A stretch of 64,000 bases of DNA from Bacilli bacterium (GCA_017447165.1 JAFSOD010000004.1:179267-243266); one strand, 5' to 3'; shown: positions 4,528 through 29,914, numbered from the stretch's first letter. A program made the numbers and translations. Notes: a model not told the origin generated them from the letters alone.

Positions 4528-5697
4528 TCACTTATTATAAATAACTTTTGGTCCACTGTCCTTAACAAATATTTCTTGAACATTATTTTCTCCGTAGTGT
4601 TCTTTCATTTTTACTAAAACTTTTTCTAGTTTAGAAGTAGGAACTAAAGCAATAACACTTCCTGCAAAGCCACCACCATTAATTTTGACAGCCCCTTGAT
4701 TATCGCTATATTTCATTAATAAATCACACGCTTCTAAAGGTGAACCTTCGTAGTTAGATCCCACCATCATATTTTTTAAATATTTAGTGGAAGATTCTCT
4801 TGATTCATTAATCATTTTTAAAAATGTTTCTTGTTCATTATCCTGTAGTGCTTTAAAAGCATTTCTCACTCTAGAATTTTCTCCATAAAAATGTTTAGCT
4901 CTTAAATAAGCCATCTCACTCATCTCACTTTTATGAGCTTCTACTTCCTCAAAAGTACCTTCGACTAAATAATTATGTCCACACGCTTTAGCGGCTTCAT
5001 ACATATCACTAGGTATAGAAGAATATAAATCACTGAGAGATGAATGATCTCCACCAGTATTTACTAAAACAAAGTGTAAATCTTTAAATGGGAATTCAAT
5101 TTGTTCAACTAGAGGATCATCAATATTTTTAAAGTCAATTTTTACAACTCCACCAAAACCAACTCCAATTTGATCCAAAAGACCACTTTTCTTTCCAAAA
5201 TATTCATTTTCTGCGTATTTTCCAGCTTTACAAAGTTCTAATTTAGAGATCTTGCCATTATTAAATAAAACATTAAAAATGTGTCCCACTAAAAGTTCGA
5301 AAGCAGCAGAGCTAGATACGCCCGCTCCTTTAAAGATTGTGGATTCGCTATAAGCGTTAAATCCTCCAACTTTGTAGCCATGTTCTTTTAAATAAGCAGC
5401 AACTCCTCTTATTAATCCTTTTGAAGTTGCGTATTCTTTTTCATTCGCGTTTAAATCAGATAAATCTACTTCATCTAACTCAAAACCTAGAGATTGAAAT
5501 AAGACTTTATTAGAGTCGTTTTTACTAACTGAAGCAACAATTTCTAAATTACAAGCACTGGCTAAACATAGACCGTGGTTATGATCTGTATGATTGCCTA
5601 AGATTTCAAAGCGTCCACCACAGGAAAAAACATGTTCAGTGTCACTAACAAATATCTTTTTATATTCAGATAATAATTTAGAAACGTTATCTTCCAC
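4528..5697 (-). CDS. galK: galactokinase (GHMP kinase)
   Basis: Galactokinase signature GGRFEILGNHTDHNHG and GHMP motif GAGVSSSAA. Confidence 0.8.
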   Translation of the reverse strand: MEDNVSKLLSEYKKIFVSDTEHVFSCGGRFEILGNHTDHNHGLCLASACNLEIVASVSKNDSNKVLFQSLGFELDEVDLSDLNANEKEYATSKGLIRGVAAYLKEHGYKVGGFNAYSESTIFKGAGVSSSAAFELLVGHIFNVLFNNGKISKLELCKAGKYAENEYFGKKSGLLDQIGVGFGGVVKIDFKNIDDPLVEQIEFPFKDLHFVLVNTGGDHSSLSDLYSSIPSDMYEAAKACGHNYLVEGTFEEVEAHKSEMSEMAYLRAKHFYGENSRVRNAFKALQDNEQETFLKMINESRESSTKYLKNMMVGSNYEGSPLEACDLLMKYSDNQGAVKINGGGFAGSVIALVPTSKLEKVLVKMKEHYGENNVQEIFVKDSGPKVIYNK

Positions 5698-6254
5698 TAT
5701 TTGATTTTTCTTCCTTCTGAAAATGCTTGTCCAACTTTTTTACCCACAACATAATAGCCATGGTTAAAAGGATCATATGAAATGATTTGCATTTTTTCTA
5801 AATCAACTTTACCGTTTTCATCTAGATATTTATCATCCACTAAGAGTTGAACAATATTACCAATAATTCCATAGTCCTCTTTAAAACATTCAAGTGTACA
5901 CTCTAAAGAATAAGGTAAGTCATCTAAAATTGGCGCGTCCACTAATTCACTCTTATGAGCTTTCCAACCAGTTTTTTCAAACTTCTTTGGATCATTTTTA
6001 CTAGATACAACACCAACAAAATCCGCTGGAACCATATTGCTAACATTAGCCAAAGAAACAGTAAAGGCTTTTCTTTTTCTAATATTCTCAGTTGTGCGAT
6101 GAGAATCAGAAATATTAAGTTCGATTTGTTTTGTGTCAAATGCGCATCCCCAAGCCGCGTTCATTACATCGATAGAACCATCATCATTGTAGGTTGCTAT
6201 TAAAATTACAGGCATTGGGAATATTGCTGGGCAAATATTCATTTTCTTTTTCAT
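5697..6254 (-). CDS. flavin reductase-like FMN-binding protein
   Basis: 185 aa. The segment PMPVILIATYNDDGSIDVMNAAW is typical of the flavin-reductase split-barrel family. Confidence 0.7.
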   Translation of the reverse strand: MKKKMNICPAIFPMPVILIATYNDDGSIDVMNAAWGCAFDTKQIELNISDSHRTTENIRKRKAFTVSLANVSNMVPADFVGVVSSKNDPKKFEKTGWKAHKSELVDAPILDDLPYSLECTLECFKEDYGIIGNIVQLLVDDKYLDENGKVDLEKMQIISYDPFNHGYYVVGKKVGQAFSEGRKIK

Positions 6255-20390: not shown

Positions 20391-21335
20391 CTATTTTTTT
20401 ACTTTTTTATTCTTTTTAGTATGCTTTTTAAATCCTTCTCCAAAGACAGCGTTTGTTTGGGTATAAGTCACAAAAGCTTTAGGATCTACAGAAGCAATAT
20501 AGCGTTTAATTTTTTCATATTGCATCTTATCAAACACCACTCTTAAAATGACTCTTTCTTCTCCCTTGTAGCCACCTTCAGCGCGTATGATTGTAGCGCC
20601 TCTTTCAAGCTCATCTTGAGCGTATCTAGAAATGTCTTCCCACTTATCGGAAATAATATCAACTTGATAAGCAGTTTGATTCTTAATATAAACAATTTCA
20701 ATTAAAACAGCAGTGACAAAGCTAGATAAAATACCACATAATGCCGCAACCCAAAGCTGCATTGTAGCCATACCAACAACAATAACGAGTCCATCAATCA
20801 TAAATGAAGAAATTGATTCTTTAATACCTGCATATTTTGAAAGCAAAACTTGCACTACATCGACACCGCCTGTTGATCCTCCTCCAAGGAAAGTAATAGC
20901 GACACCACCACCAATGAAAACACCACCAAAAATACCACATAATATGAGGTTTCCTGCTGCTTGTTCACCGGCGAATGTAATTGCAAGTTCGTCGAAGAAA
21001 GCCACTCTTTTAAATAAGAATGTAAAGCCAATATATAAAGCAGAAGACAAAGCAGTTTTTAATGCAAAGTCTTTTCCAACAAATATTAAACCTAGTAACC
21101 AGAAGAATACTGTTAATCCTGCTACAAGATAATCGTAGATTTGTACATCGACAAAGTGCTGAATAATAATCGCAATACCACTAATTCCACCAGCAACAAG
21201 TTCGGCTTTGGTTAAGAAAATTACAGAGCCAAATGATAATAAGAATGTGCCAAGGATAACTGCAATATAATTTGATGTTTGTTTTAAGACTAATTTTTTA
21301 TCCATTTTTCTTTGCCTCCATTTGTAGATATGCAT
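20391..21335 (-). CDS. YitT-family membrane protein (DUF161 plus DUF2179)
   Basis: 314 aa with a multi-TM N-terminal domain and soluble C-terminal domain. Confidence 0.7.
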
Positions 21336-22402
21336 ATAAGAAGTTATCGATGTTTCCGTTCATTACTCCTTCAACATCAACTTCTTCATAATTTGTTCTA
21401 TTATCTTTCACTAATGTATATGGACAGAAAACGTACGAGCGAATTTGACTACCCCATTCAATGTTTTTCTTTTCACCGACAATTGAGTTAAGTTCATTAT
21501 TTCTTTTTTCGACTTCTAATAAATACAATTTGCTTTTCAACATCGCCATCGCAGTTTCTTTATTAGATAATTGGCTTCTTTCAACTTGGCAAGACACTAC
21601 TATTCCTGTAGGTAAGTGGGTGATTCTCACTGCGGTTTCCACTTTGTTGACATTTTGTCCACCAGCGCCACCACTACGGTAAGTATCAATTTTTAAATCC
21701 GATTCACTAATTTCAATATTAATTGAGTCATTTTGAAATTCAGGAATAACATTCACACTAGCAAAGCTAGTATGTCTTCTTTTATTCGCATCAAAAGGAG
21801 AGATTCTTACTAATCTATGAACACCTTTTTCTCCTTTTAATAAACCATAAGCGTGTTTACCGGCAATCTTAATAGTGACACTTTTTAATCCTGCTTCTTC
21901 ACCAGGTTCATAAGAGATAAGTTGCATCTTAAATCGATGCGCTTCCGCATATAAAACGTACATGCGATATAACATGTCCGCCCAGTCTTGTGCTTCTGTA
22001 CCACCTGCGCCTGGATGAATTTCAATAATCGCGTTAAGATTATCAAACTCACCACTAAATAAACGGTCTACTTCGAATTCATTAACTTCTTTTTTTAAAT
22101 CTTCAAAGGACTCGGAAATGGATTCAAGCAAAGATTCATCTCCTAAATCTAAAAGTTCCACTAAGTCAGTATAAGTGGAGGAAATAGATTTATAGGAATC
22201 ATAAGTTGATCGACTGGAATTGAGTCGATTAATAATCTCTAAAGCTTCGCTTCTTTTATTCCAGAAATCTGGAGATTCACTTTTTTCAGTTAATTCTTTA
22301 ATTTCAGTTTCTAATTTTGCGAGGTCAAAGAGAAGACCCGAGTTGACGGATTTTCTCGCCAACAGCACCAAGTTCCTGTCTTAAAGCAACAAGGTCTTTC
22401 AT
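21298..22402 (-). CDS. prfB: peptide chain release factor 2, with programmed +1 frameshift
   Basis: ATG at 22402 gives [25 protein letters not shown] then CTT TGA C at about 22325-22330. The +1 frame continues [12 protein letters not shown]... and carries the SPF and GGQ motifs. The start overlaps the secA stop. Confidence 0.9.
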
Positions 22403-24858
22403 TATTCTTTCTTCTCCTCGACTTCAGCGTCGATGACGTCACCTTTATTTTCTTGAGGTGCTTCTTCTACTGGTTTCTTTTCAACTTTAACATTAACAAG
22501 ATTTAAAACAGCATCAACAGAGGCAATGTTTAAACATTCTCTAAACATTTTATAGCCTTCGTTAACATAGTCTTGAAGTGGGTTGACATTCGCGTAGCTT
22601 CTTAAGTGAATACCTTCTCTTAATCTCGCCATCGCATCAATATGTTTGGTCCAGTTTTGGTCAATGCATCTTAAGATAAAGTTTCTCTCAATGTTTTGAG
22701 CGAGGTCTTCTGGCCATTCTTTTCTTCTTTCAAGATAATAATCTTGAATTGCCTCACCTAAATCTGGTCCACATTCTTCGGGATAAGATTCATCAAAGGC
22801 GACAGCGTTTAAAGATCCTGCTGGTAAGAAACGAGGCTCAACTTCTTTTAAGAGGAGTTCACCACTAACCAAGTTAGAGTTAGACCCCACTGGAACGGCT
22901 TTTTGAGATAAGAATTCGCCTGTAGTCTTAAAGACTTCATCAATAATGTCTTGAATATTCTTGCCTTCAATAATACGGTCACGTTTGTCATAGACAATTT
23001 GTCTTTGTTTGGCTAAAACGTCATCATATTCAAGTAAAGATTTACGAGTGTCAAAGTTTTGTCCTTCGATTCTCTTTTGAGCGGAGGTAATAACTCCAGA
23101 TACCAGTCTTGCTTCAAGAGCTTCTTCTCCGAAGTTCTTTTCAATATAGTTACGCATATTATCCGCAGCGAAACGAATTAATAATTCGTCATCAAAGGAA
23201 ACATAGAATCTGGAGAATCCTGGATCACCTTGACGTCCACTACGACCACGTAATTGGTTATCAATACGTCTAGATTCATGTCTTTCAGTACCCAAAACAC
23301 ATAAACCTGAAAAGTTGTAATAGCCTTTCTTCTCAAGCTCCTTTTTCTTATCTTCTGGGACTGTGGATTCTAAGTTTCTGACTTCGTCAACAATTTTAAT
23401 ATCAGTACCACGACCTGCCATGTTAGTAGCAAGGGTGATAGAACCTTTTCTACCAGCATCTTTAATAATTTCCGCTTCACGAGCGTGGTTTTTAGCATTC
23501 AACATTTCGTGTTGTAAGCCAGCCGCAGTTAATAAAGCAGAGATTTCTTCGGAAGATTCAACTGAGACAGTACCAATTAAAATTGGTTGACCGATTTCAT
23601 GTCTCACTTTAACTTCTTCCACCAAGGCTCTTAATTTTGGTCCTTTATGTGCATAGATATAATCAAGTGCGTCCACACGAGCGATAGGTCTATTTGGTGG
23701 AACACAAACAACACGCATGTTGTAGATTTTTCTAAATTCTTCTTCTTCAGTTTTAGCGGTACCAGTCATACCTGCCATCTTCTTATATAGACGGAAGAAG
23801 TTTTGATATGTAATAGTGGCTAAAGTTGTGGTTTCTTGTTTGATTTCCACATTTTCTTTAGCTTGAACAGCTTGATGTAAACCATCACTCCATTCTCTTC
23901 CCGGAAGGACACGGCCAGTAAATTGGTCAATGATTTGCACTTGTCCTTCGGCATCGACTAAATAGTCGACATCTCTAAACATAATATAGTTCGCTCTTAA
24001 AGCGTTATGGATTCTATGGACTAAATCAGCGAATTCTGGATCATATAAATTTTTGATGCCAAACATTCTATCTGCTTTAGCGTTACCTTCATCAGTTAAG
24101 TTAACAGTCTTATCTTTAACGTCAACAACAAAGTCGACATCTTTCTTTAAGGCCTTAACAAATCTATCGGCAACTGTATATTGAGAGGCGCTGGCTCTAG
24201 CACCACCAGAAATAATAAGAGGGGTTCTAGATTCATCGATCAAGATGGAGTCAGCTTCGTCAACAATACAGAAATTGAGCCCTCTTAAAACTCTATTTTG
24301 CATAGAAGTCGCCATGTTATCTCTTAAGTAGTCGAAACCTAATTCAGAGTTTGTGGTATATGTGATATCACATAAATAAGCTTCTTTCTTTTCAGAAGTA
24401 GTCTTTGTTCTTAAGTTAACTCCAACAGTTAAACCTAAGAATCTATAAATTTGGCCCATCCAGTTCGCGTCACGTTCTGATAAGTATTCGTTAACAGTAA
24501 CAACGTGAACGCCATTACCAGCTAAGGCGTTTAAATAAACTGCCATAGTGGCTGTTAAGGTTTTACCTTCACCAGTTTTCATTTCCGCGACATCGCCAGA
24601 ATGTAAAACTAATGAACCAATAATTTGAACTTTGTATGGGAATTCCGCAAGTGTACGTCTAGCTGCTTCTCTAGCGACGGCAAATGCTTCGATTTTGATA
24701 TCGTCTAAAGTCTTTCCGTTAGCGAGTAACTCTTTAAAGTATGGAGTCTTCGCTCTTAATTCATCATCGCTTAGGGCTTTCATCGATTCTTCTAAGGCGA
24801 TAACCTTATCCGCAATCTTTGAATATTTTTTAAGCGCCATTTTGTCAAATAAGCCCAT
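22402..24858 (-). CDS. secA: preprotein translocase ATPase SecA
   Basis: 818 aa with canonical SecA motifs (MKTGEGKTLTATM, DEAD-like) throughout. Confidence 0.95.
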   Translation of the reverse strand: MGLFDKMALKKYSKIADKVIALEESMKALSDDELRAKTPYFKELLANGKTLDDIKIEAFAVAREAARRTLAEFPYKVQIIGSLVLHSGDVAEMKTGEGKTLTATMAVYLNALAGNGVHVVTVNEYLSERDANWMGQIYRFLGLTVGVNLRTKTTSEKKEAYLCDITYTTNSELGFDYLRDNMATSMQNRVLRGLNFCIVDEADSILIDESRTPLIISGGARASASQYTVADRFVKALKKDVDFVVDVKDKTVNLTDEGNAKADRMFGIKNLYDPEFADLVHRIHNALRANYIMFRDVDYLVDAEGQVQIIDQFTGRVLPGREWSDGLHQAVQAKENVEIKQETTTLATITYQNFFRLYKKMAGMTGTAKTEEEEFRKIYNMRVVCVPPNRPIARVDALDYIYAHKGPKLRALVEEVKVRHEIGQPILIGTVSVESSEEISALLTAAGLQHEMLNAKNHAREAEIIKDAGRKGSITLATNMAGRGTDIKIVDEVRNLESTVPEDKKKELEKKGYYNFSGLCVLGTERHESRRIDNQLRGRSGRQGDPGFSRFYVSFDDELLIRFAADNMRNYIEKNFGEEALEARLVSGVITSAQKRIEGQNFDTRKSLLEYDDVLAKQRQIVYDKRDRIIEGKNIQDIIDEVFKTTGEFLSQKAVPVGSNSNLVSGELLLKEVEPRFLPAGSLNAVAFDESYPEECGPDLGEAIQDYYLERRKEWPEDLAQNIERNFILRCIDQNWTKHIDAMARLREGIHLRSYANVNPLQDYVNEGYKMFRECLNIASVDAVLNLVNVKVEKKPVEEAPQENKGDVIDAEVEEKKE

Positions 24859-24956: not shown

Positions 24957-25583
24957 TTAATATTCTTCTTTCTTTTTCTTTTTGGTTTTCGCTATTACTA
25001 ATATTTCGATAGTTTTTGCTCCTTTGCTTCTTAATAAATCGATTGAAGTTAAAAGTGTGCTTCCTGTAGTCATAATGTCATCTACTAACAATATCTTTTT
25101 ACCCTTCATTGATATATTTTCATCTATTTCTAAAACATCATTTATCTTATGTCTTCCAAGTGAAGATTGATCAGACTGTTTATGCGCTGTTTTCTTCTTC
25201 AAAATGGGTAATTCTTTAAGCTTTAAACTCTCAAAAATCGCTTTTACGTGATTAAAACCACGCCGCTCATCATCAATGTGATAAGAAGGTATATAGACGA
25301 TATGATAACCATGATATTTTAACTTCAAAAAAGTTAGATATCGATCTAAGAAAACATCCTTTAATTCATAGTCATAACAACCTTTAAATTTATAGATTAA
25401 TTCCTTTATAAAATCTGTATATTCATAGACGGCTGTCCCTTTTATATTTCCTATTTCGAAAGACACAAATTTAGCCTGTAATTTACTAAAACAATCTCCA
25501 CATAAAATGTTCTTCCTTTTCAATAAGTTATATATGGAATTATCCGTTATTCTTTTAAAGCAAATTTTACAGAAATTATCCAT
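24957..25583 (-). CDS. comFC: competence protein ComFC (phosphoribosyltransferase-like)
   Basis: N-terminal CxxC...CxxC, C-terminal PRTase motif LLVDDIMTTGSTL. It overlaps the end of comFA. Confidence 0.85.
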   Translation of the reverse strand: MDNFCKICFKRITDNSIYNLLKRKNILCGDCFSKLQAKFVSFEIGNIKGTAVYEYTDFIKELIYKFKGCYDYELKDVFLDRYLTFLKLKYHGYHIVYIPSYHIDDERRGFNHVKAIFESLKLKELPILKKKTAHKQSDQSSLGRHKINDVLEIDENISMKGKKILLVDDIMTTGSTLLTSIDLLRSKGAKTIEILVIAKTKKKKKEEY

Positions 25584-26775
25584 TATCTAATGCCTCATTA
25601 TTCTTCTTTATTTCTTCTATAGATTCTTTAATATCGGAAGTCACTTTTTCGCATAGATAAATTACTTCTCCTTCTGGCGCATCAGCCTTTCTTCCCACTC
25701 GTCCTGCGATTTGAATTAAAGTGCCTTTTTCATATATTTTATGGTCAGTTTGACTGATAATTACCTGCAAATTCTTTACAGTTACCCCTCTTTCTAGTAC
25801 TGATGTAGTTACTAAATATGAAAATAAGTGATTACGAAATTCTTCGATTATTTCAGATCTATAATTCCTTTTAGAATGAACATAATTTCCACCTTTAACA
25901 AATAAGGAAATTACTCTATAGATTTTCTCACATAAATTAATGGTGGGAGCAAAAACAAATACAGGTTTGTTATTTTTCTTATATTCCTTTATTTTTCTAA
26001 TTAAATATAAGTATTGAAATAGCGTATTTCGTTTAACTATTTTGGGTATTGGAAGAGGATGACGATGAAAACGAACTTCTAATCTTAATATATCTTTGTT
26101 ATCTCCATGGAAATGATCTATTACTTCTTTAGATGGAGTGGCGGACATCATAACATAATGACCACACAAAGATTGATAGAACATGCTATGTAATGTTGGA
26201 TCATCTTTAAACGGAAAAGCGTCTATCTCATCTAGGATAATTAAAGAGAAATAATTCTTGTATCTATATAGTTGATGTGTGGTTAGGACAACTATATCGC
26301 CTTCTTTATCTTTTGTGTGCCCTCCATATAAGCAAACCACTTTGTTATATTTAAATATTTCTCTTAACCTATTATGTAATTCTATTGCAACATCTCTTCT
26401 AGGGAGCGCAAACGCGACCTTATCGCCACAATTAATTGCATATTTAATAATGTTGAGGCAAATTTCAGTCTTTCCTGATCCACATACAGCAAAAACAAGA
26501 CTATCTATTCCTTTCTTATAGTTCTCCACTAACTTATCGGATAATTCTTTCTGTTCTGGAGATAGCTCGTACTCTAAATGAATAGGTGCTTTCTTGGGAT
26601 AAGATGGCTTATGTTCTACTTCTTCACCACGAAAAGAGATACACCTACGACAATAGGGTTTGCCATTAAGATATCCAATTGAATGTATATCGGTGTTACC
26701 ACAAATAGGGCATTTATAAGTTTCTATGTTGCAACATCTCCTTTCTTTTGATTTAATATTTATACAACCTGTCAC
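25576..26775 (-). CDS. comFA: competence helicase ComFA (zinc finger plus DEAD-box helicase)
   Basis: 4-Cys zinc finger CPICGNTD...CRRC, Walker A AVCGSGKTE, DEID, SAT and helicase C motifs. The annotated start is GTG at 26775. The position that is ATG in the paralogous copies is ATA here (26725-26727). Confidence 0.85.
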   Translation of the reverse strand: MTGCINIKSKERRCCNIETYKCPICGNTDIHSIGYLNGKPYCRRCISFRGEEVEHKPSYPKKAPIHLEYELSPEQKELSDKLVENYKKGIDSLVFAVCGSGKTEICLNIIKYAINCGDKVAFALPRRDVAIELHNRLREIFKYNKVVCLYGGHTKDKEGDIVVLTTHQLYRYKNYFSLIILDEIDAFPFKDDPTLHSMFYQSLCGHYVMMSATPSKEVIDHFHGDNKDILRLEVRFHRHPLPIPKIVKRNTLFQYLYLIRKIKEYKKNNKPVFVFAPTINLCEKIYRVISLFVKGGNYVHSKRNYRSEIIEEFRNHLFSYLVTTSVLERGVTVKNLQVIISQTDHKIYEKGTLIQIAGRVGRKADAPEGEVIYLCEKVTSDIKESIEEIKKNNEALDNG

Positions 26776-26938
26776 GCAGAGCTAAATAGGCTCAGACAGG
26801 TTTTTATTTTAACTTAACAGGTTTTCTTCTTTTTATAATTCTTATTGTCAATCTATCATCAGGGTGTATTTTCATACCAATCAATTCTCTTGATCCAAAA
26901 TGCTTACGTTTACCCTGAACAGGTCTATTGTTCACAAA

Positions 26939-27127
26939 CTAAGCCTTAACTTTATTTTCGGTAGGATGTTTTAGTTTTGTCTGATGTCTATGTTGAGATG
27001 TTCCTGTGATAACAGCAATATAAATGTTCTTTTTATCATTCTTTAAAACAATTAAACCAGGGTGTTTGTTTACTATATAAAATTTTCCTTTTTCTAAATG
27101 TTTGTTATAAATCTTTTTCTTACTCAT
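26939..27127 (-). CDS. small basic protein, family A (short form), cassette 1
   Basis: 62 aa MSKKKIYNKHLEKGKFYIVNKHPGLIVLKNDKKNIYIAVITGTS..., homologous to the 29037-29441 product. SD AGGAGGAAAT precedes it. Confidence 0.5.
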   Translation of the reverse strand: MSKKKIYNKHLEKGKFYIVNKHPGLIVLKNDKKNIYIAVITGTSQHRHQTKLKHPTENKVKA

Positions 27128-27142
27128 ATTTCCTCCTTTCTG

Positions 27143-27424
27143 TTATGTATTTCGTGTTTTTGGGGATCCACATACGGCAAAAACTAAACTATCAATTCCT
27201 TTTTTATAATTCTCTACCAGCCTATCTGATAATTCTTTTTGCTCTGGAGACAACTCATATTCAAGATGAATAGGTGCTTTCTTTGGGTAAGATGGTTTAT
27301 GTTCTACTTCTTCGCCTCGAAAAGAGATGCATCTACGACAATAAGGTTTGCCGTTTAGATAGCCAATAGAATGAATATCAGTGTTGCCACAAACTGGACA
27401 AGTAAATGAAAGCTGGTTATCCAT
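27143..27424 (-). CDS. stand-alone ComFA N-terminal zinc-finger domain paralog (ends at the Walker-A position), cassette 1
   Basis: 93 aa. It is identical to ComFA residues 22-100 or so except K to R, yet its DNA differs at about 15-20% of positions, almost all synonymous. It ends ...AVCGSPKTRNT*. Its ATG overlaps the stop of the upstream small ORF. Confidence 0.6.
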   Translation of the reverse strand: MDNQLSFTCPVCGNTDIHSIGYLNGKPYCRRCISFRGEEVEHKPSYPKKAPIHLEYELSPEQKELSDRLVENYKKGIDSLVFAVCGSPKTRNT

Positions 27425-27821
27425 TTTTCTTGCCTTTCTTTTTATGTTTTGATTTAATACTGGTAGATGGTGTGCGCCCTTTCTGGGTTAAAGCTTCATT
27501 CGTTAGCTTTCCACCATTTTTTCTTTGCTCTTTAATTAGTGAAACATATACATCTATTTTTATTTCATCGGAAACTACTAAACGATACTTTTTAAGTTCT
27601 TGTCCTCTATGTCGGAGTTTATCTTTTCTTATATACTTTCTGAAATAAGATTTCTTGTCTGAATTGGGATTTGGATTTACATCAAATTCTTCATAATTTC
27701 CAGTTACAGTTGGACTATCAGTTATTTCGATATTTTCCCATGTTCCATCTTCTAGAACACTGATTTCTATTGATGGGTGGTATTTAGTTCTTTTGTTTTT
27801 AAATATTTTATATTTATTCAT
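27417..27821 (-). CDS. small basic protein, family B, cassette 2
   Basis: 134 aa. Shares motifs KxHPSIE..., NPNP and RKY(I/L)RKD...RGQ with the 28361-28687 product. Confidence 0.5.
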   Translation of the reverse strand: MNKYKIFKNKRTKYHPSIEISVLEDGTWENIEITDSPTVTGNYEEFDVNPNPNSDKKSYFRKYIRKDKLRHRGQELKKYRLVVSDEIKIDVYVSLIKEQRKNGGKLTNEALTQKGRTPSTSIKSKHKKKGKKNG

Positions 27822-27840
27822 GTATCAATTCCTTTCTATG

Positions 27841-28113
27841 TTATGGATTTGTTGTTTTTGGTGATCCACATACGGCAAAAACAAGACTATCTAAGCCTTT
27901 TTTGTAATTCTCAACTAACTTATCCGATAGTACTTTTTGCTCTGGAAACAGTTCGTACTCTAAATGAATAGGCGCCTTTTTAGGGTATGATGTTTTGTGT
28001 TCCACTTCTTCACCTTTAAAAGAGATACACCTACGGCAATAAAGTTTGCCGTTCAACATACCAATTGAATGAATATCAGTGTTACCACATACAGGACATT
28101 TATAAGGTTCCAT
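27841..28113 (-). CDS. stand-alone ComFA N-terminal zinc-finger domain paralog, cassette 2
   Basis: 90 aa MEPYKCPVCGNTD...CRRC...AVCGSPKTTNP*, about 90% identical to the ComFA N-terminus. It has its own SD AAAGGTGA. Confidence 0.6.
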   Translation of the reverse strand: MEPYKCPVCGNTDIHSIGMLNGKLYCRRCISFKGEEVEHKTSYPKKAPIHLEYELFPEQKVLSDKLVENYKKGLDSLVFAVCGSPKTTNP

Positions 28114-28142
28114 ATTGAATTATCACCTTTCTTTTGATTTAA

Positions 28143-28226
28143 AATAGCCATAGTCGTGGTCATCACTAGTTTGATGCCGGCCCACAGGAAGCTGTGTAGC
28201 TCCATTAACGGGGCTTTTTATTTTTA
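28143..28226. repeat. structured element copy 1 (two hairpins plus GC stem and U-run on the plus strand)
   Basis: GGTCATCActagttTGATGCC, then CACAGgaagCTGTG, then AGCTCCattaacGGGGCT followed by TTTTTATTTTT. It is homologous to 28975-29062 with compensatory changes in the middle stem. Confidence 0.5.
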
Positions 28227-28360
28227 CGGTTTTATAATATTTGCCATATATTGGGCATTTATAAGTTTCTATATTGCGTTACCTCCTTAATTTTGTTTTA
28301 ATATTTGTAGTTAGTGCTATCGGTTAATCCGACCAAAGCCCAAGTTTAGTAGGTTTTACA

Positions 28361-28687
28361 CTAACTTTTTTTGTTGTTTAAATAGTTTTCAATTTCAATT
28401 AAATCATCTTCTGATAGGTTGAATTTTTCCAAAAGTTGACCTCTTGTTTTAATTGGATCCTTTCTTAAATACTTTCTAACATATGCTTTATCATTTCTTT
28501 TTGGATTCGGATTTACTTTAAGCTCAATATATCTGTTCTTCTTAGTGGGGCTTGAAGTTACTTCTAAATTAATCCAAATAGTTCCGTTTGAATCTACTTC
28601 TATGCTTGGATGATTTTTTGTTTTTCTGTTTTTATAGAATTTGAATTTTTTGCTCATTTGACACCTCCTTTTTGTTATGGTTTTCAA
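28361..28687 (-). CDS. small basic protein, family B, cassette 3
   Basis: 108 aa. Same family as the 27417-27821 product. Confidence 0.5.
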   Translation of the reverse strand: MKTITKRRCQMSKKFKFYKNRKTKNHPSIEVDSNGTIWINLEVTSSPTKKNRYIELKVNPNPKRNDKAYVRKYLRKDPIKTRGQLLEKFNLSEDDLIEIENYLNNKKS

Positions 28688-28694
28688 GTCTTTG

Positions 28695-28952
28695 GTGATC
28701 CTTATATCGCATAAACTAAATTATCTATCCCTTTCTTATAGTTCTCCACTAACTTATCCGATAGTTCTTTCTGCTCAGGGGGACAACTCATACGATAAGT
28801 GAATTGGGGCCTTACGATATGAAGGCTTATGTTCCACTGCTTAACCCTTAAAATAGATACATCTTCGGGAGTAATGTTTGCCGTTTAGGTATCCTATTGA
28901 ATGAATACCAATGTTTCCACAAACTGGGCATTTATATGTTTCGATATTGCAT
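28695..28952 (-). pseudogene. degraded comFA 5' copy (zinc-finger fragment with frameshifts), cassette 3
   Basis: Nucleotide homology to comFA codons 1-90 runs through the conserved junction GGTGATCC..., but indels break the reading frame. The ORF track finds no ORF over 60 aa here. Confidence 0.55.
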
Positions 28953-28974
28953 CATCTCCTTAAATTTGATTTAA

Positions 28975-29062
28975 TAATGTCATGGTCGTGGTCATCACAA
29001 GTTTGATGCCGACTCGTAGGTAACTACGCAGCTCCATTAACGGGGCTTTTTTATTTTTTTGC
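28975..29062. repeat. structured element copy 2
   Basis: GGTCATCAcaagttTGATGCC, then CGTAGgtaaCTACG, then AGCTCCattaacGGGGCT followed by a T-run. It overlaps the 3' end of ORF 29037-29441. Confidence 0.5.
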
Positions 29063-29441
29063 GTTTTTTATAATAAGAACCGTAAATAGGATTACCTTTT
29101 TGTACTTTAATAATTAAATACATATCTTGGATGCTAAACGACATATCTGGATATTCTTTTTCTCCGTAATCATTTCTATCTCCTATAAAAGGTCTTTTCT
29201 TTATTAGCGATATTTCAACGTTACTATCGGTTGCATGTTTTAATTTGTAATATCCTTTTCTTAAACCTAGACGATCAAATTCTTCTTTGGTCATTGATCC
29301 AGTGATAATTGCATAGAAAGCTTTATCTTCATTATCAATTTTAAAAATTTGTCCAGGATGTCCACCTGGGCTACCATCTAAAACACGATAAAACTTGCCG
29401 ATTTCAAGTGTTATCTTGTGTTTTCTTTTCTTTTTACTCAT
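29037..29441 (-). CDS. small basic protein, family A (long form), cassette 4
   Basis: 134 aa MSKKKRKHKITLEIGKFYRVLDGSPGGHPGQIFKIDNEDKAFYAIITGS..., with a KOW/SH3-like G-x-x-Y-x-V...G...G-x-I pattern. The lysine-rich C-terminus is encoded by the terminator A-tract. Confidence 0.5.
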   Translation of the reverse strand: MSKKKRKHKITLEIGKFYRVLDGSPGGHPGQIFKIDNEDKAFYAIITGSMTKEEFDRLGLRKGYYKLKHATDSNVEISLIKKRPFIGDRNDYGEKEYPDMSFSIQDMYLIIKVQKGNPIYGSYYKKRKKIKKPR

Positions 29442-29478: not shown

Positions 29479-29612
29479 GCGATTCACATACCGCAAAAAT
29501 AATCTATCAATTCCCTTCTTATAGTTCTCCACTAACTTATCTGATAGTTCTTTCTGCTCTGGAGACAGTTCATATGAAAGATGAATAGGTGCTTTCTTAG
29601 AATATGAATGTT
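29479..29612 (-). pseudogene. truncated comFA 5' copy (about 45 codons upstream of the Walker-A position only), cassette 4
   Basis: Homology to comFA covers only the segment ...HLEYELSPEQKELSDKLVENYKKGIDS.. and junction, then is lost. Confidence 0.5.
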
Positions 29613-29894
29613 ACTCTATGAAAAACGAAAACATTTCCTTCTTCATCAACGATATTTGCTGGGTGGTTGTTTTTTAAATAAATTCTGAAGTGCCTCCTGA
29701 AAGAACTATTTTTTGTTTTTGTTTCATTTTTTCTCCTTTATGTTATGTATTTATTTCTTGTAGATCAGGGCGGCCTTTATTTTTTTATAGGTTTTCTCCT
29801 TTTATAATTGATAAAAAACTCCCTACATTATATATAGAGTGGCTTTCTTCATTTTTTTGTGAAAAAAAGTTTAATAAATCTTTATAGGTATTAA

Positions 29895-29914
29895 AAAAAG
29901 GCCTATAGGCCTTT
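29895..29914. terminator. rpiB terminator
   Basis: AAAAAGGCCTATAGGCCTTT palindrome. Confidence 0.7.

Follow-up and report, generated by a model that had tools for sequence, protein, structure and literature searches.

Why should the gene for a DNA-uptake helicase be preceded by a row of small, highly basic genes that alternate with pieces of the helicase gene itself? The question is raised by a 64,000-nucleotide stretch of DNA from a Bacilli bacterium (GCA_017447165.1 JAFSOD010000004.1:179267-243266; the whole stretch is called the window, and coordinates count from its first letter), in which such an array lies directly upstream of an intact comFA on the minus strand. A sequence-only reading had described two separate, alternating families of small proteins at 26939–29441 and suggested that they may be nucleic-acid-binding partners, toxins or regulators tied to ComFA zinc-finger modules. 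Comparison with related genomes showed that each small gene is carried in a cassette together with a comFA 5′ end, and that cassette insertion has displaced older comFA starts. The reading we favour, with modest confidence, is that the cargo proteins are toxin-like nucleic-acid effectors, co-expressed with competence and shuffled by recombination in the comFA repeats.

The four open reading frames (ORFs) that had been noted were all found on the minus strand, namely A62 (26939–27127), B134 (27417–27821), B108 (28361–28687) and A134 (29037–29441). BLASTP related A62 to A134 (36% identity, E 4e-7) and B134 to B108 (48% identity, E 2e-28), and gave no match between A and B. The extreme basicity was confirmed (pI 9.9–10.3, with lysine and arginine at 23–24% in the four ORFs), as were the motifs HPG/HPS, IITGS/T, NPNP and RKY[IL]RKD..RGQ. 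Strong Shine-Dalgarno (SD) sequences of the AAAGGAGG type were located 6–9 nt upstream, apart from that of B134 (GAAAGGA), which is weaker than the others. Two gene models had to be redrawn. The 62-aa ORF is not a whole gene: A62 and the following 43-codon ORF (26935–26804) form one A′-type cargo frame of 106 codons (26804–27127), interrupted by a single amber codon (TAG) at 26941–26939. The orthologue at the related locus L014, ~106 aa long and 91% identical, has serine at the TAG position, and A′, 107 aa at related loci, is intact at L014, L021, L012, L019, L020, L031 and L013. For B108, the previously proposed start was TTG 28687 (108 aa); orthologues start at ATG 28657, behind AAAAAGGAGG, and the gene probably runs from there (28361–28657), giving 98 aa.

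Searches of public genomes and metagenomes found 129 homologues of A134 and 111 of B134 (50–99% identity), mostly in metagenome-assembled genomes (MAGs) of rumen and gut origin labelled 'Bacilli bacterium' and 'Erysipelotrichaceae'. Pairwise Nei-Gojobori estimates of the ratio of nonsynonymous to synonymous substitution rates (dN/dS) were 0.01–0.14 between orthologous cargo genes; values of 0.37–0.48 occurred in a few near-identical pairs with too few differences to inform. Among A134 orthologues, synonymous sites were saturated and dN was only ~0.09 (dN/dS ~0.03). Because dN/dS is low and each family has more than 100 homologues, the cargo ORFs are real genes. Chance ORFs and pseudogene debris were ruled out on these grounds, the amber-interrupted A′ of the window excepted. 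The stop codon of B134 overlaps the start of the next comFA copy (ATGGATAA). A programmed frameshift fusing the two was considered and rejected, since a slippery site is lacking and the overlap amounts to ordinary ATGGATAA coupling.

The division into two families, with nothing but an N-terminal signature in common, did not survive profile comparison, which unites them in one superfamily of at least six subtypes over ~95 residues. Alignment of the A-like group with the extended B family by hhalign gave a probability of 92.6% (E 4.6e-7, 92 columns), and the C and D types matched the same family with probabilities of 98% (E 2.6e-13, 120 columns) and 94.7% (E 6e-8, 92 columns), respectively; BLASTP links also connect subtypes. 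An hhalign result from thin alignments that left A1 and A2 unrelated (probability 3.6%) was overturned by the broader profiles. Homology between A and B extends through the whole domain, and the shared signature is its visible tip. On these comparisons, the small basic ORFs are members of one uncharacterised superfamily of proteins of ~100–135 aa, in which we distinguished A, A′, E, B108, B134, C and D. The cargo types found at related loci include C (..FRIYFKNNHPAYIVDEEGNTYVFHRVTHSKT..), D (..FRYNKKRKHYSYIF..NILLTT..) and E (..KGKFYRIMDSSGGHYSRLYKK..YWIVRFTDS..). When 1.84 billion cluster representatives were scanned in full by HMMER with the profile of the B family, only 93 relatives emerged. 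The consensus of the extended family is F..N.....HP.........W.....THSP......I.L..NPNP.D....Y.RK..R.D.....G.....Y.LS..D..KI, and H15, T34 and P50 (B134 numbering) are nearly invariant across it.

The sequence-only reading had recognised no described family in these proteins, and this held: Pfam, NCBIfam, PHROGs and PADLOC gave no match to the four ORFs, and 56 extended-family members received no Pfam or PHROG assignment. Neither A134 nor B134 had a homologue among GenBank phages, IMG/VR or PLSDB plasmids, and a comFA N-terminal query returned two Listeria phage records only (32% identity). A phage-borne origin was ruled out by this lack of viral homologues. Distant superfamily members were observed at L089–L092 (4001–4483), L102–L103 (4001–4306) and L104 (4001–4534) as solitary genes in Christensenellales, Clostridium sp. 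CAG:349 and other Bacilli. They sit in the early regions of prophages or integrative elements beside HTH_3 repressors, with a tyrosine integrase also present at L089–L092. This mobile-element setting fits an accessory, toxin-like or defence-like role, and a core competence role less well.

What carries these genes became clear from a survey of 80 comFA loci from species-level genome representatives, in which rpiB, the parts of comFA and the cargo types were mapped. Among the 75 loci with both genes, the slot between them was empty in 36, with comFA following rpiB within 131 nt, and filled in 39 (306–3872 nt) by one to five co-oriented units. At 3212 nt, the gap of the window is the second largest among the surveyed loci. 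The slot cargo was A, A′, B108, B134, C, D or E, or a 330-aa YhcG protein with DUF1016_N and YhcG_C PD-(D/E)XK nuclease domains (E 1e-38 and 3e-52). The YhcG cassettes, at L009 (5016–6008), L010, L024, L028, L067 and L099, have the same linker and comFA 5′ copy as the others. As had been suggested, the small genes are physically tied to ComFA zinc-finger fragments, and they recur in the rpiB–comFA slot within a clade of rumen and gut Bacilli MAGs. Many species have a single-copy small gene right before comFA (L001, L007, L039, L051, L072 and L033), and comFA is intact in cassette-bearing loci. At L037, in a more distant genome, the slot holds a KilA-N protein (5159–5995, 278 aa, E 2e-21) whose stop codon overlaps the comFA start, and in two of the 39 inserts, from the distant genomes at L075 and L082, it holds an ordinary kinase-like gene.

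Each cassette measures 0.7–1.3 kb and consists of a ~35-nt linker (..PKT-R/T-N/K-stop, then an SD), one cargo gene and the first ~85 codons of comFA, the copy ending at the Walker-A codons. Working comFA reads ..AVCGSGKTEICL at this point; the copies read ..AVCGSPKT(R/T)N(T/P)-stop, followed by an SD and the next small gene. The junction, TGYGGNTCN-CCN-AAR-ACN-NNN-AAA-NN-CATAA..AGAAAGGAG..ATG, is identical in ~20 cassettes irrespective of cargo and genome, and every junction has the Walker-A glycine changed to proline (GGN to CCN). Because the sequence still resembles comFA for ~15 nt past this change, we infer that the universal junction would trace back to a single duplication joint in an ancestor. 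The idea of an attC-like hairpin there was rejected, since the only stem has 7 bp and is not conserved.

The comFA fragments had been read as partner modules of the small genes; they are instead former comFA 5′ ends displaced by serial cassette insertion. At L031, a module of A′ and a comFA 5′ end is joined to the working helicase core. The same module, 96.4% identical over 663 nt, is cut at the Walker-A codons at L021, where it leads into the linker, then an E-type gene, one more comFA 5′ copy and finally the core. At L034 and L035, a native-type comFA start (MSDFICPVCGN..) stands after the rpiB hairpin and passes, via an internal deletion, into a Walker-A junction and cassettes, and at L093 a complete native-type 5′ copy (58% identical) is stranded between rpiB and an A′ cassette.

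The window itself holds the comFA 5′ region (~250–290 nt) in at least five repeats, with the cargo in the transcription order C (remnant), A, B, A (remnant), B and A′, all on the minus strand. The array begins with a frameshifted C-type cargo remnant at 29600–29727 (..KNNHPANIVDEEGNVFVFHRVT..; 82% identity over 33 aa to the intact C protein of L015) and a comFA 5′ fragment at 29479–29607, comprising codons ~42–84 and a degenerate junction. After the intact A134 (29037–29441), a member of the superfamily with MazF-like predicted fold whose standing as a gene draws on homologues, invariant residues, its model and dN/dS ~0.03, comes a decaying comFA copy at 28696–28945, in which the start codon reads ATC, the frame is shifted and a zinc-ligand Cys has become Ser; this copy ends at the junction. 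B108 is followed by a comFA start remnant of an SD and ~10 codons at 28241–28309 (ATA GAA ACT TAT AAA TGC CCA..; repeat family D5), and then by the 3′-end remnant of an A-type gene (..KSPVN-stop region; repeat family D2) at 28140–28240, the stub itself lying near 28240–28210. Closest to comFA lie two copies that remain intact ORFs: one of 90 codons at 27841–28113, ending ..AVCGSPKTTNP-stop with the Walker-A Gly-to-Pro change, and, after B134 (27417–27821), one of 93 codons at 27143–27424, ending ..AVCGSPKTRNT-stop. Among the distal ones, frameshifts, missing zinc ligands and reduction to fragments are seen. In the genomes compared, roughly every second truncated copy is broken. Losses of zinc ligands and stop codons occur in truncated copies, and their nonsynonymous differences per site (pN) are 1.6–1.8 times those of full-length copies, which fits short-lived remnants.

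The 5′ segment that comes with a cassette is under unusual constraint. The N-terminal 84 aa of cassette-linked comFA (window 26476–26727 and copies; L009–L031) are 94–99% identical as protein, with pN of 0.016–0.06 vs. synonymous differences per site (pS) of 0.44–0.74, and the constraint on them is roughly tenfold that on the neighbouring helicase core (pN 0.2–0.34). Between the window and the conspecific L009, pS was 0.66 in the N-terminal part and 0.18 in the core, and protein-level stasis at near-saturated synonymous sites was also seen between copies in one array. Recent spread as the cause of this conservation was ruled out, as the synonymous sites are near saturation.

Such constraint is one of the points in favour of a toxin-antitoxin explanation, in which the small proteins would be MazF-type toxins and the downstream zinc-ribbon/Q-motif N-terminus of ComFA, either within ComFA or as a truncated 90-aa protein, would be the antidote, so that the cassette acts as an addiction unit. 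A comFA 5′ copy does follow every cargo gene, B134 is translationally coupled to its copy, and roughly half of the truncated copies are still open, with pN/pS of ~0.1; zinc-binding antitoxins encoded after the toxin, such as MqsA, are also known. The pairing is weakened when followed gene by gene. A134 and B108 are intact although the comFA copy behind them is frameshifted or reduced to 10 codons, an intact 90-aa copy follows a mere cargo remnant, and the intactness of a fragment is generally independent of that of its neighbouring small gene, which ruled out the fragments as cognate partners. Cargo also occurs with native-type N domains that are 52–73% identical (L007, L039, L051, L046 and L035), the unrelated YhcG cargo has the same N-terminal copy, and the losses of zinc ligands and the stop codons in truncated copies do not suit an antidote. 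We therefore regard an addiction unit as very unlikely.

Cassettes have also been transferred between genera. B108 differs between the window and L035 by a dS of 0.12 (dN/dS 0.035), where the ComFA cores are 52% and rpiB 65% identical; between L035 and L017, B108 has a dS of 0.06 against comFA at ~67% nt identity, and A′ has a dS of 0.03 between L021 and L031 against comFA at ~71%. The B108 segment that moved corresponds to window 28746–28241 (93.7% nt identity with L035) and comprises the last ~60 nt of a comFA copy, the linker, the gene, its 3′ untranslated region and the next comFA start to ~codon 10. Between L009 and L028, the YhcG cassettes share 87.8% identity along 1263 nt, a match that begins at the YhcG ATG and extends ~20 nt beyond Walker A; the flanks are ~70% identical or unalignable. 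L009 is conspecific with the window (rpiB 98%, ComFA core 97% identical) and carries a YhcG cassette in place of the whole small-protein array; the left flank shared by the two stops at ~29795 and similarity returns at comFA codon ~6.

These exchanges bear on whether the small proteins are ordinary competence factors, that is, accessory subunits of DNA uptake such as single-stranded DNA- or RNA-binding partners of ComFA and ComFC, whose variety would reflect lineage divergence and accidental tandem duplication. Their constant position before comFA, with single copies in many species, the very strong purifying selection and a basic, SH3-like fold suited to nucleic-acid binding would all agree with this. 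A subunit of the uptake machinery would hardly be missing from 36 of 75 related loci, replaced within one species by an unrelated nuclease or recently passed between distant hosts, and the distant homologues lie on prophage-like elements and not by competence genes; one copy in the window even has a nonsense codon. We hold this explanation to be highly doubtful.

Crossovers occurred at the ends of the comFA 5′ segment, at the CPxCG codons and the ..GIDSLVxAVCGSGKTE codons, and both stretches are conserved in empty genomes too. The right-hand boundaries of cassettes vary from the CPxCG codons to Walker A. A breakpoint at the most conserved codons of comFA, co-transfer of the neighbouring comFA 5′ segment, spread across genera and the presence of an unrelated YhcG PD-(D/E)XK nuclease in the same site could suggest homing, in which cargo nucleases would cut cassette-free comFA near the Walker-A codons and repair would copy in the cassette with the comFA 5′ region. 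Homing should leave an immune target, yet the Walker-A site is regenerated unchanged, with only the synonymous variation seen in empty genomes, and the existence of arrays implies that insertion into an intact site has recurred. Genes for homing endonucleases typically decay fast, whereas the cargo has long been under strong purifying selection. Pfam, NCBIfam, PHROG and PADLOC show no endonuclease motif in the small proteins, the PD-(D/E)XK domain being found in YhcG alone, and the variable right-hand boundaries also count against homing, which is judged very unlikely.

A further possibility is a recombinase acting in trans, either a phage or integrative and conjugative element integrase or a Xer-type enzyme, for which the comFA Walker-A codons would be attB and the linker attP, with circular units of linker, cargo and comFA 5′ end being inserted and excised in the way that cassettes are by an integron integrase. 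It would account for a single junction in all cassettes, cargo types and genomes, for a regenerated site at which tandem arrays form, and for entry into hosts with flanks too diverged for ordinary homologous recombination. Integrase prophages are known to target comFA: those with tyrosine integrases include one target in the 5′ half of the gene in Bacillus cereus (PMC4774983), and prophage insertions into comFA have been described (PMC4774983, PMC12378983). Against this, no recombinase was called in the flanking genes of L001–L008 or among the slot ORFs of ~40 occupied loci, no integrase or recombinase lies within ~6 kb in ~40 loci, and neither cargo nor junction was found in phage, plasmid and viral collections. 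A scan of JGI metagenomes for the junction pattern found nine contigs, and the 8 that could be aligned to reference proteins were all the rpiB–comFA locus. The boundaries of recent transfers lie inside comFA repeats and not at one point, and the ~15 nt of comFA resemblance past the Gly-to-Pro change fit one propagated ancestral joint. An enzyme in trans is accordingly judged rather unlikely. The searchable literature held no account of cassettes before comFA.

The nature of the cargo was approached through structure prediction. The sequence-only reading had seen a KOW/SH3-barrel-like and vaguely MazF/PemK-like pattern in family A. At the level of fold this held for B134 and weakly for A134, with no MazF link at the level of sequence. 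The AlphaFold model of B134 (pLDDT, the predicted local confidence, 83.5; >90 for residues 1–100, with a disordered lysine-rich tail) had MazF, PemK, EndoA and MoxT toxins as all 50 of its 50 best matches in the Protein Data Bank (PDB), with probabilities of 0.9–1.0, target-normalised TM-scores of 0.47–0.63 and E of 0.026–0.23. Among predicted viral structures (BFVD), its best matches were again PemK/MazF proteins (E 2.3e-3). For the A134 model (pLDDT 80.4), S. aureus MazF ranked second (114 columns, TM 0.45/0.51) amid partial KOW, uL24 and Tudor barrels; this fold match is weaker than that of B134, and A is tied to B by profile comparison. The KOW-like part of the pattern was not borne out, as there was no KOW or NusG profile match (the sole hit was NCBIfam NusG_myco, E 0.07, 12.7 bits vs. 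a cut-off of 150) and the uL24/KOW Foldseek TM was 0.26–0.32. The predictions support a MazF/PemK-like fold for the small proteins, an SH3-barrel plus helix.

In the B134 model, an invariant H-P stands at the start of β2 and a T-x-S at the end of β3, and the nearly invariant polar residues H15 and T34 of B134 are H28 and T47 in A134. The secondary-structure elements come in the same order as in MazF. By secondary-structure register, and with no significant alignment, the H-P and T-x-S positions would correspond to R29-P30 and T52 of MazF, of which R29 and T52 are the catalytic residues of the E. coli protein. The resemblance to PemK/MazF/Kid/EndoA toxins (CcdB/MazF fold, PF02452) then comprises a size of ~100–135 aa and basicity, the predicted β-barrel and C-terminal helix, a β2 x-H-P-x-x-[IV] and a β3-end [IV]-T-x-S where MazF has, on this register, R-P-x-V-V and P-x-T-S, and distant homologues on mobile elements. 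Unlike those toxins, the cargo proteins have lysine-rich N- and C-terminal tails and lie inside a competence operon, not in a two-gene autoregulated module.

The preferred reading of competence-co-expressed, toxin-like effectors can now be put as a sequence of steps. Once a cassette has entered comFA, the 5′ copy that it brings serves as the working start; the earlier start is pushed upstream, cut at Walker A and left to decay, and repeated displacement has built the array. Between strains and genera, cassettes would spread by recombination, homologous or homeologous, within conserved stretches of the comFA 5′ region, with uptake as the most plausible route by which cassette DNA arrives. Production of the cargo, as accessory genes of a toxin-like or defence-like kind, would be limited to times when the comF operon is on, and the proteins may, as the least certain step, bind or cleave RNA or single-stranded nucleic acid in the manner of MazF-type effectors. 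Nucleic-acid binding or cutting is a putative activity, suggested by the predicted fold.

Several results weigh against this reading. Pfam PF02452 matched none of the four ORFs or the 56 extended-family members; hmmsearch of the A1 and A2 profiles against PDB sequences found no MazF and one chance-level match (E 0.48) to an unrelated enzyme; and hhalign against four MazF/Kid sequences gave probabilities of ≤0.14%. The cargo proteins thus have neither sequence nor profile similarity to the toxins, and without such a link we filed them as a new family with MazF fold and not as members of PF02452. A histidine would stand for the catalytic arginine of MazF, a point that comes from secondary-structure register only. 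No antitoxin gene of the MazE/PemI type lies beside the cargo in the array, where the neighbours are comFA 5′ copies, other cargo and rpiB only, and single-cassette loci have no further ORF that could be an antitoxin; this is unusual for an active MazF toxin. As for the movement of cassettes, comFA 5′ copies that are ~80–85% identical as DNA are a poor substrate for homologous recombination, and the uniform GGN-to-CCN junction leaves room for a site-specific enzyme in trans.

A bolder version, which we advance only tentatively and consider less probable than not, treats the locus as an integrase-free gene-cassette platform built on a competence gene, with nucleases as cargo that are made only during uptake. 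The portable ~85 codons of comFA and the near-universal P-loop codons would serve as homology arms, so that any cell taking up DNA could splice a cassette in before comFA, keep comFA working and stack cassettes in an integron-like way. The antitoxin-less MazF-fold and YhcG PD-(D/E)XK cargo would then police incoming nucleic acid, or else sabotage transformation and so protect the cassette. If true, this would add a new player to the conflict between transformation and mobile DNA.

Expression of the cargo with competence, as the preferred reading has it, agrees with the layout of the locus. Cassettes, comFA and comFC all have one orientation. Situated in this orientation between the terminator of rpiB and comFA, the cassettes are probably transcribed together with comFA and comFC. 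The intrinsic terminator of rpiB (29897–29914, minus strand) has a stem AAAGGCC/GGCCTTT followed by a T-run and is the only intergenic terminator-like site on the minus strand; one more, chance-like, lies within the A134 coding sequence. The region has no convincing sigma-70-like promoters, and sigma-70-like matches are fewer than in shuffled sequence. A second hairpin with a T-run after rpiB (29819–29842, minus strand) marks the left edge of the variable region and is conserved across the group (L061, L007, L026 and L072). Whichever gene stands first in the slot has the 3′ arm of this hairpin (TAGGGGG or TAGGGAG) as its SD, so that terminator and ribosome-binding site overlap; the gene served is comFA in empty loci and cargo at L007, L026 and L072. 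This overlap may act as an attenuator of comF expression.

The working comFA (25576–26727, minus strand; open frame listed as 25576–26775), with domains DEAD, ResIII and Helicase_C and Walker-A codons GGATCAGGAAAGACT at 26481–26467, has no ATG, GTG or TTG behind its SD. Its apparent start is an ATA at 26725–26727, 8 nt after AAAGGAG, and the start position of other copies (28111–28113 and 28943–28945) and genomes is occupied by ATG, ATA or ATC. The pattern suggests that a near-cognate start codon is conserved and that comFA is weakly translated.

An element of ~75 nt, counted from the A-type stop, was observed in the window at 28972–29046, over the stop codon of A134 and before the next comFA start, and at 28140–28214, as well as at L001 (6396-), L010 (5900-), L016 (5225-) and L034 (5900-). 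It is nearly invariant across genomes and remains before comFA even after the A gene has been replaced. RNAalifold predicted three hairpins, the middle one with two pairs that show compensatory changes (CACAG/CUGUG, CGUAG/CUACG and CGCAG/CUGCG), and Rfam gave no match anywhere in the window, this element included. On the plus strand, its first hairpin (29030–29047 and 28198–28215) reads AGCTCCATTAACGGGGCT with a T-run and scores as an intrinsic terminator, which could block antisense transcription into the cassettes. A separate RNA was observed at L015, where 5668–5730 (minus strand) matched Rfam RF02946 (cow-rumen-1 RNA; 56.3 bits, E 1.5e-10) inside the ~540 nt of non-coding DNA that separate a C-type cargo gene from comFA. 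RF02946 was not found in 15 other loci scanned, and the L015 match gives this orphan metagenomic RNA motif a genomic context.

The wider neighbourhood comprises comFC, secA and prfB downstream of comFA on the minus strand, and rpiB, tsaC, prmC and prfA ahead of the array. In prfB (21298–22442, minus strand), a 357-aa ORF from TTG is accompanied by a short overlapping upstream ORF (22311–22442), as is typical of release factor 2 genes with their programmed +1 frameshift.

Among known systems, the orphan arrays of contact-dependent inhibition (CDI) and Rhs loci (cdiA-CT/cdiI, rhs-CT) are comparable in that new modules recombine via a conserved segment and displace the earlier module, which stays adjacent in truncated form with a piece of that segment, and in that arrays vary between strains. 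The comFA array is the mirror image, at the 5′ end and upstream of its gene; its repeat is the conserved gene start and its variable part a separate upstream ORF instead of a domain of the main protein, it has no paired immunity gene, and the host gene encodes a cytoplasmic DNA-uptake helicase and not a secreted toxin. With integrons it shares single-gene cassettes in one orientation that are stacked at one end, probably promoterless and read from upstream, as well as varied cargo and strain-to-strain differences. Unlike integrons, it has no intI, attI or attC hairpins (the only inverted repeats in the array are four that are weak and scattered), and its inter-cassette repeat is a direct ~250-nt copy of the host gene 5′ end.

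Integrative elements such as SXT/R391 in prfC and the dusA islands enter the 5′ end of a gene and supply a new start. The comFA cassettes resemble these 5′-end-replacing elements in inserting into the 5′ part of a conserved gene and keeping it intact with a replacement 5′ coding segment, and resemble comFA-targeting prophages in their choice of a competence gene. They differ in being one-gene units of 0.7–1.3 kb with no integrase, and prophages interrupt comFA, whereas cassettes leave it undisrupted. Free-standing homing endonuclease genes such as phage seg and mob adjoin conserved genes, and like them the cassettes place small, selfish-looking ORFs by a conserved coding stretch, with co-transfer of the adjacent segment. 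In contrast to such genes, the comFA target is unaltered, purifying selection on the cargo is of long standing and no endonuclease motif occurs in the small proteins. We rate the whole as a new combination, in which a new protein family in a known fold class is joined to an unusual array architecture.

These results describe strain-variable gene arrays built with no recombinase nearby, from units that bring a replacement 5′ end for the host gene and stack at its P-loop codons. A conserved superfamily absent from curated libraries is added to the proteins of these organisms, and it may be a new branch of toxin-like nucleic-acid effectors. Since the host gene encodes the motor of DNA uptake, the variable, exchanged cargo sits where a conflict between natural transformation and selfish DNA is expected (PMC4774983, PMC12378983), and the array provides a specific place in uncultured rumen Bacilli at which this can be tested.

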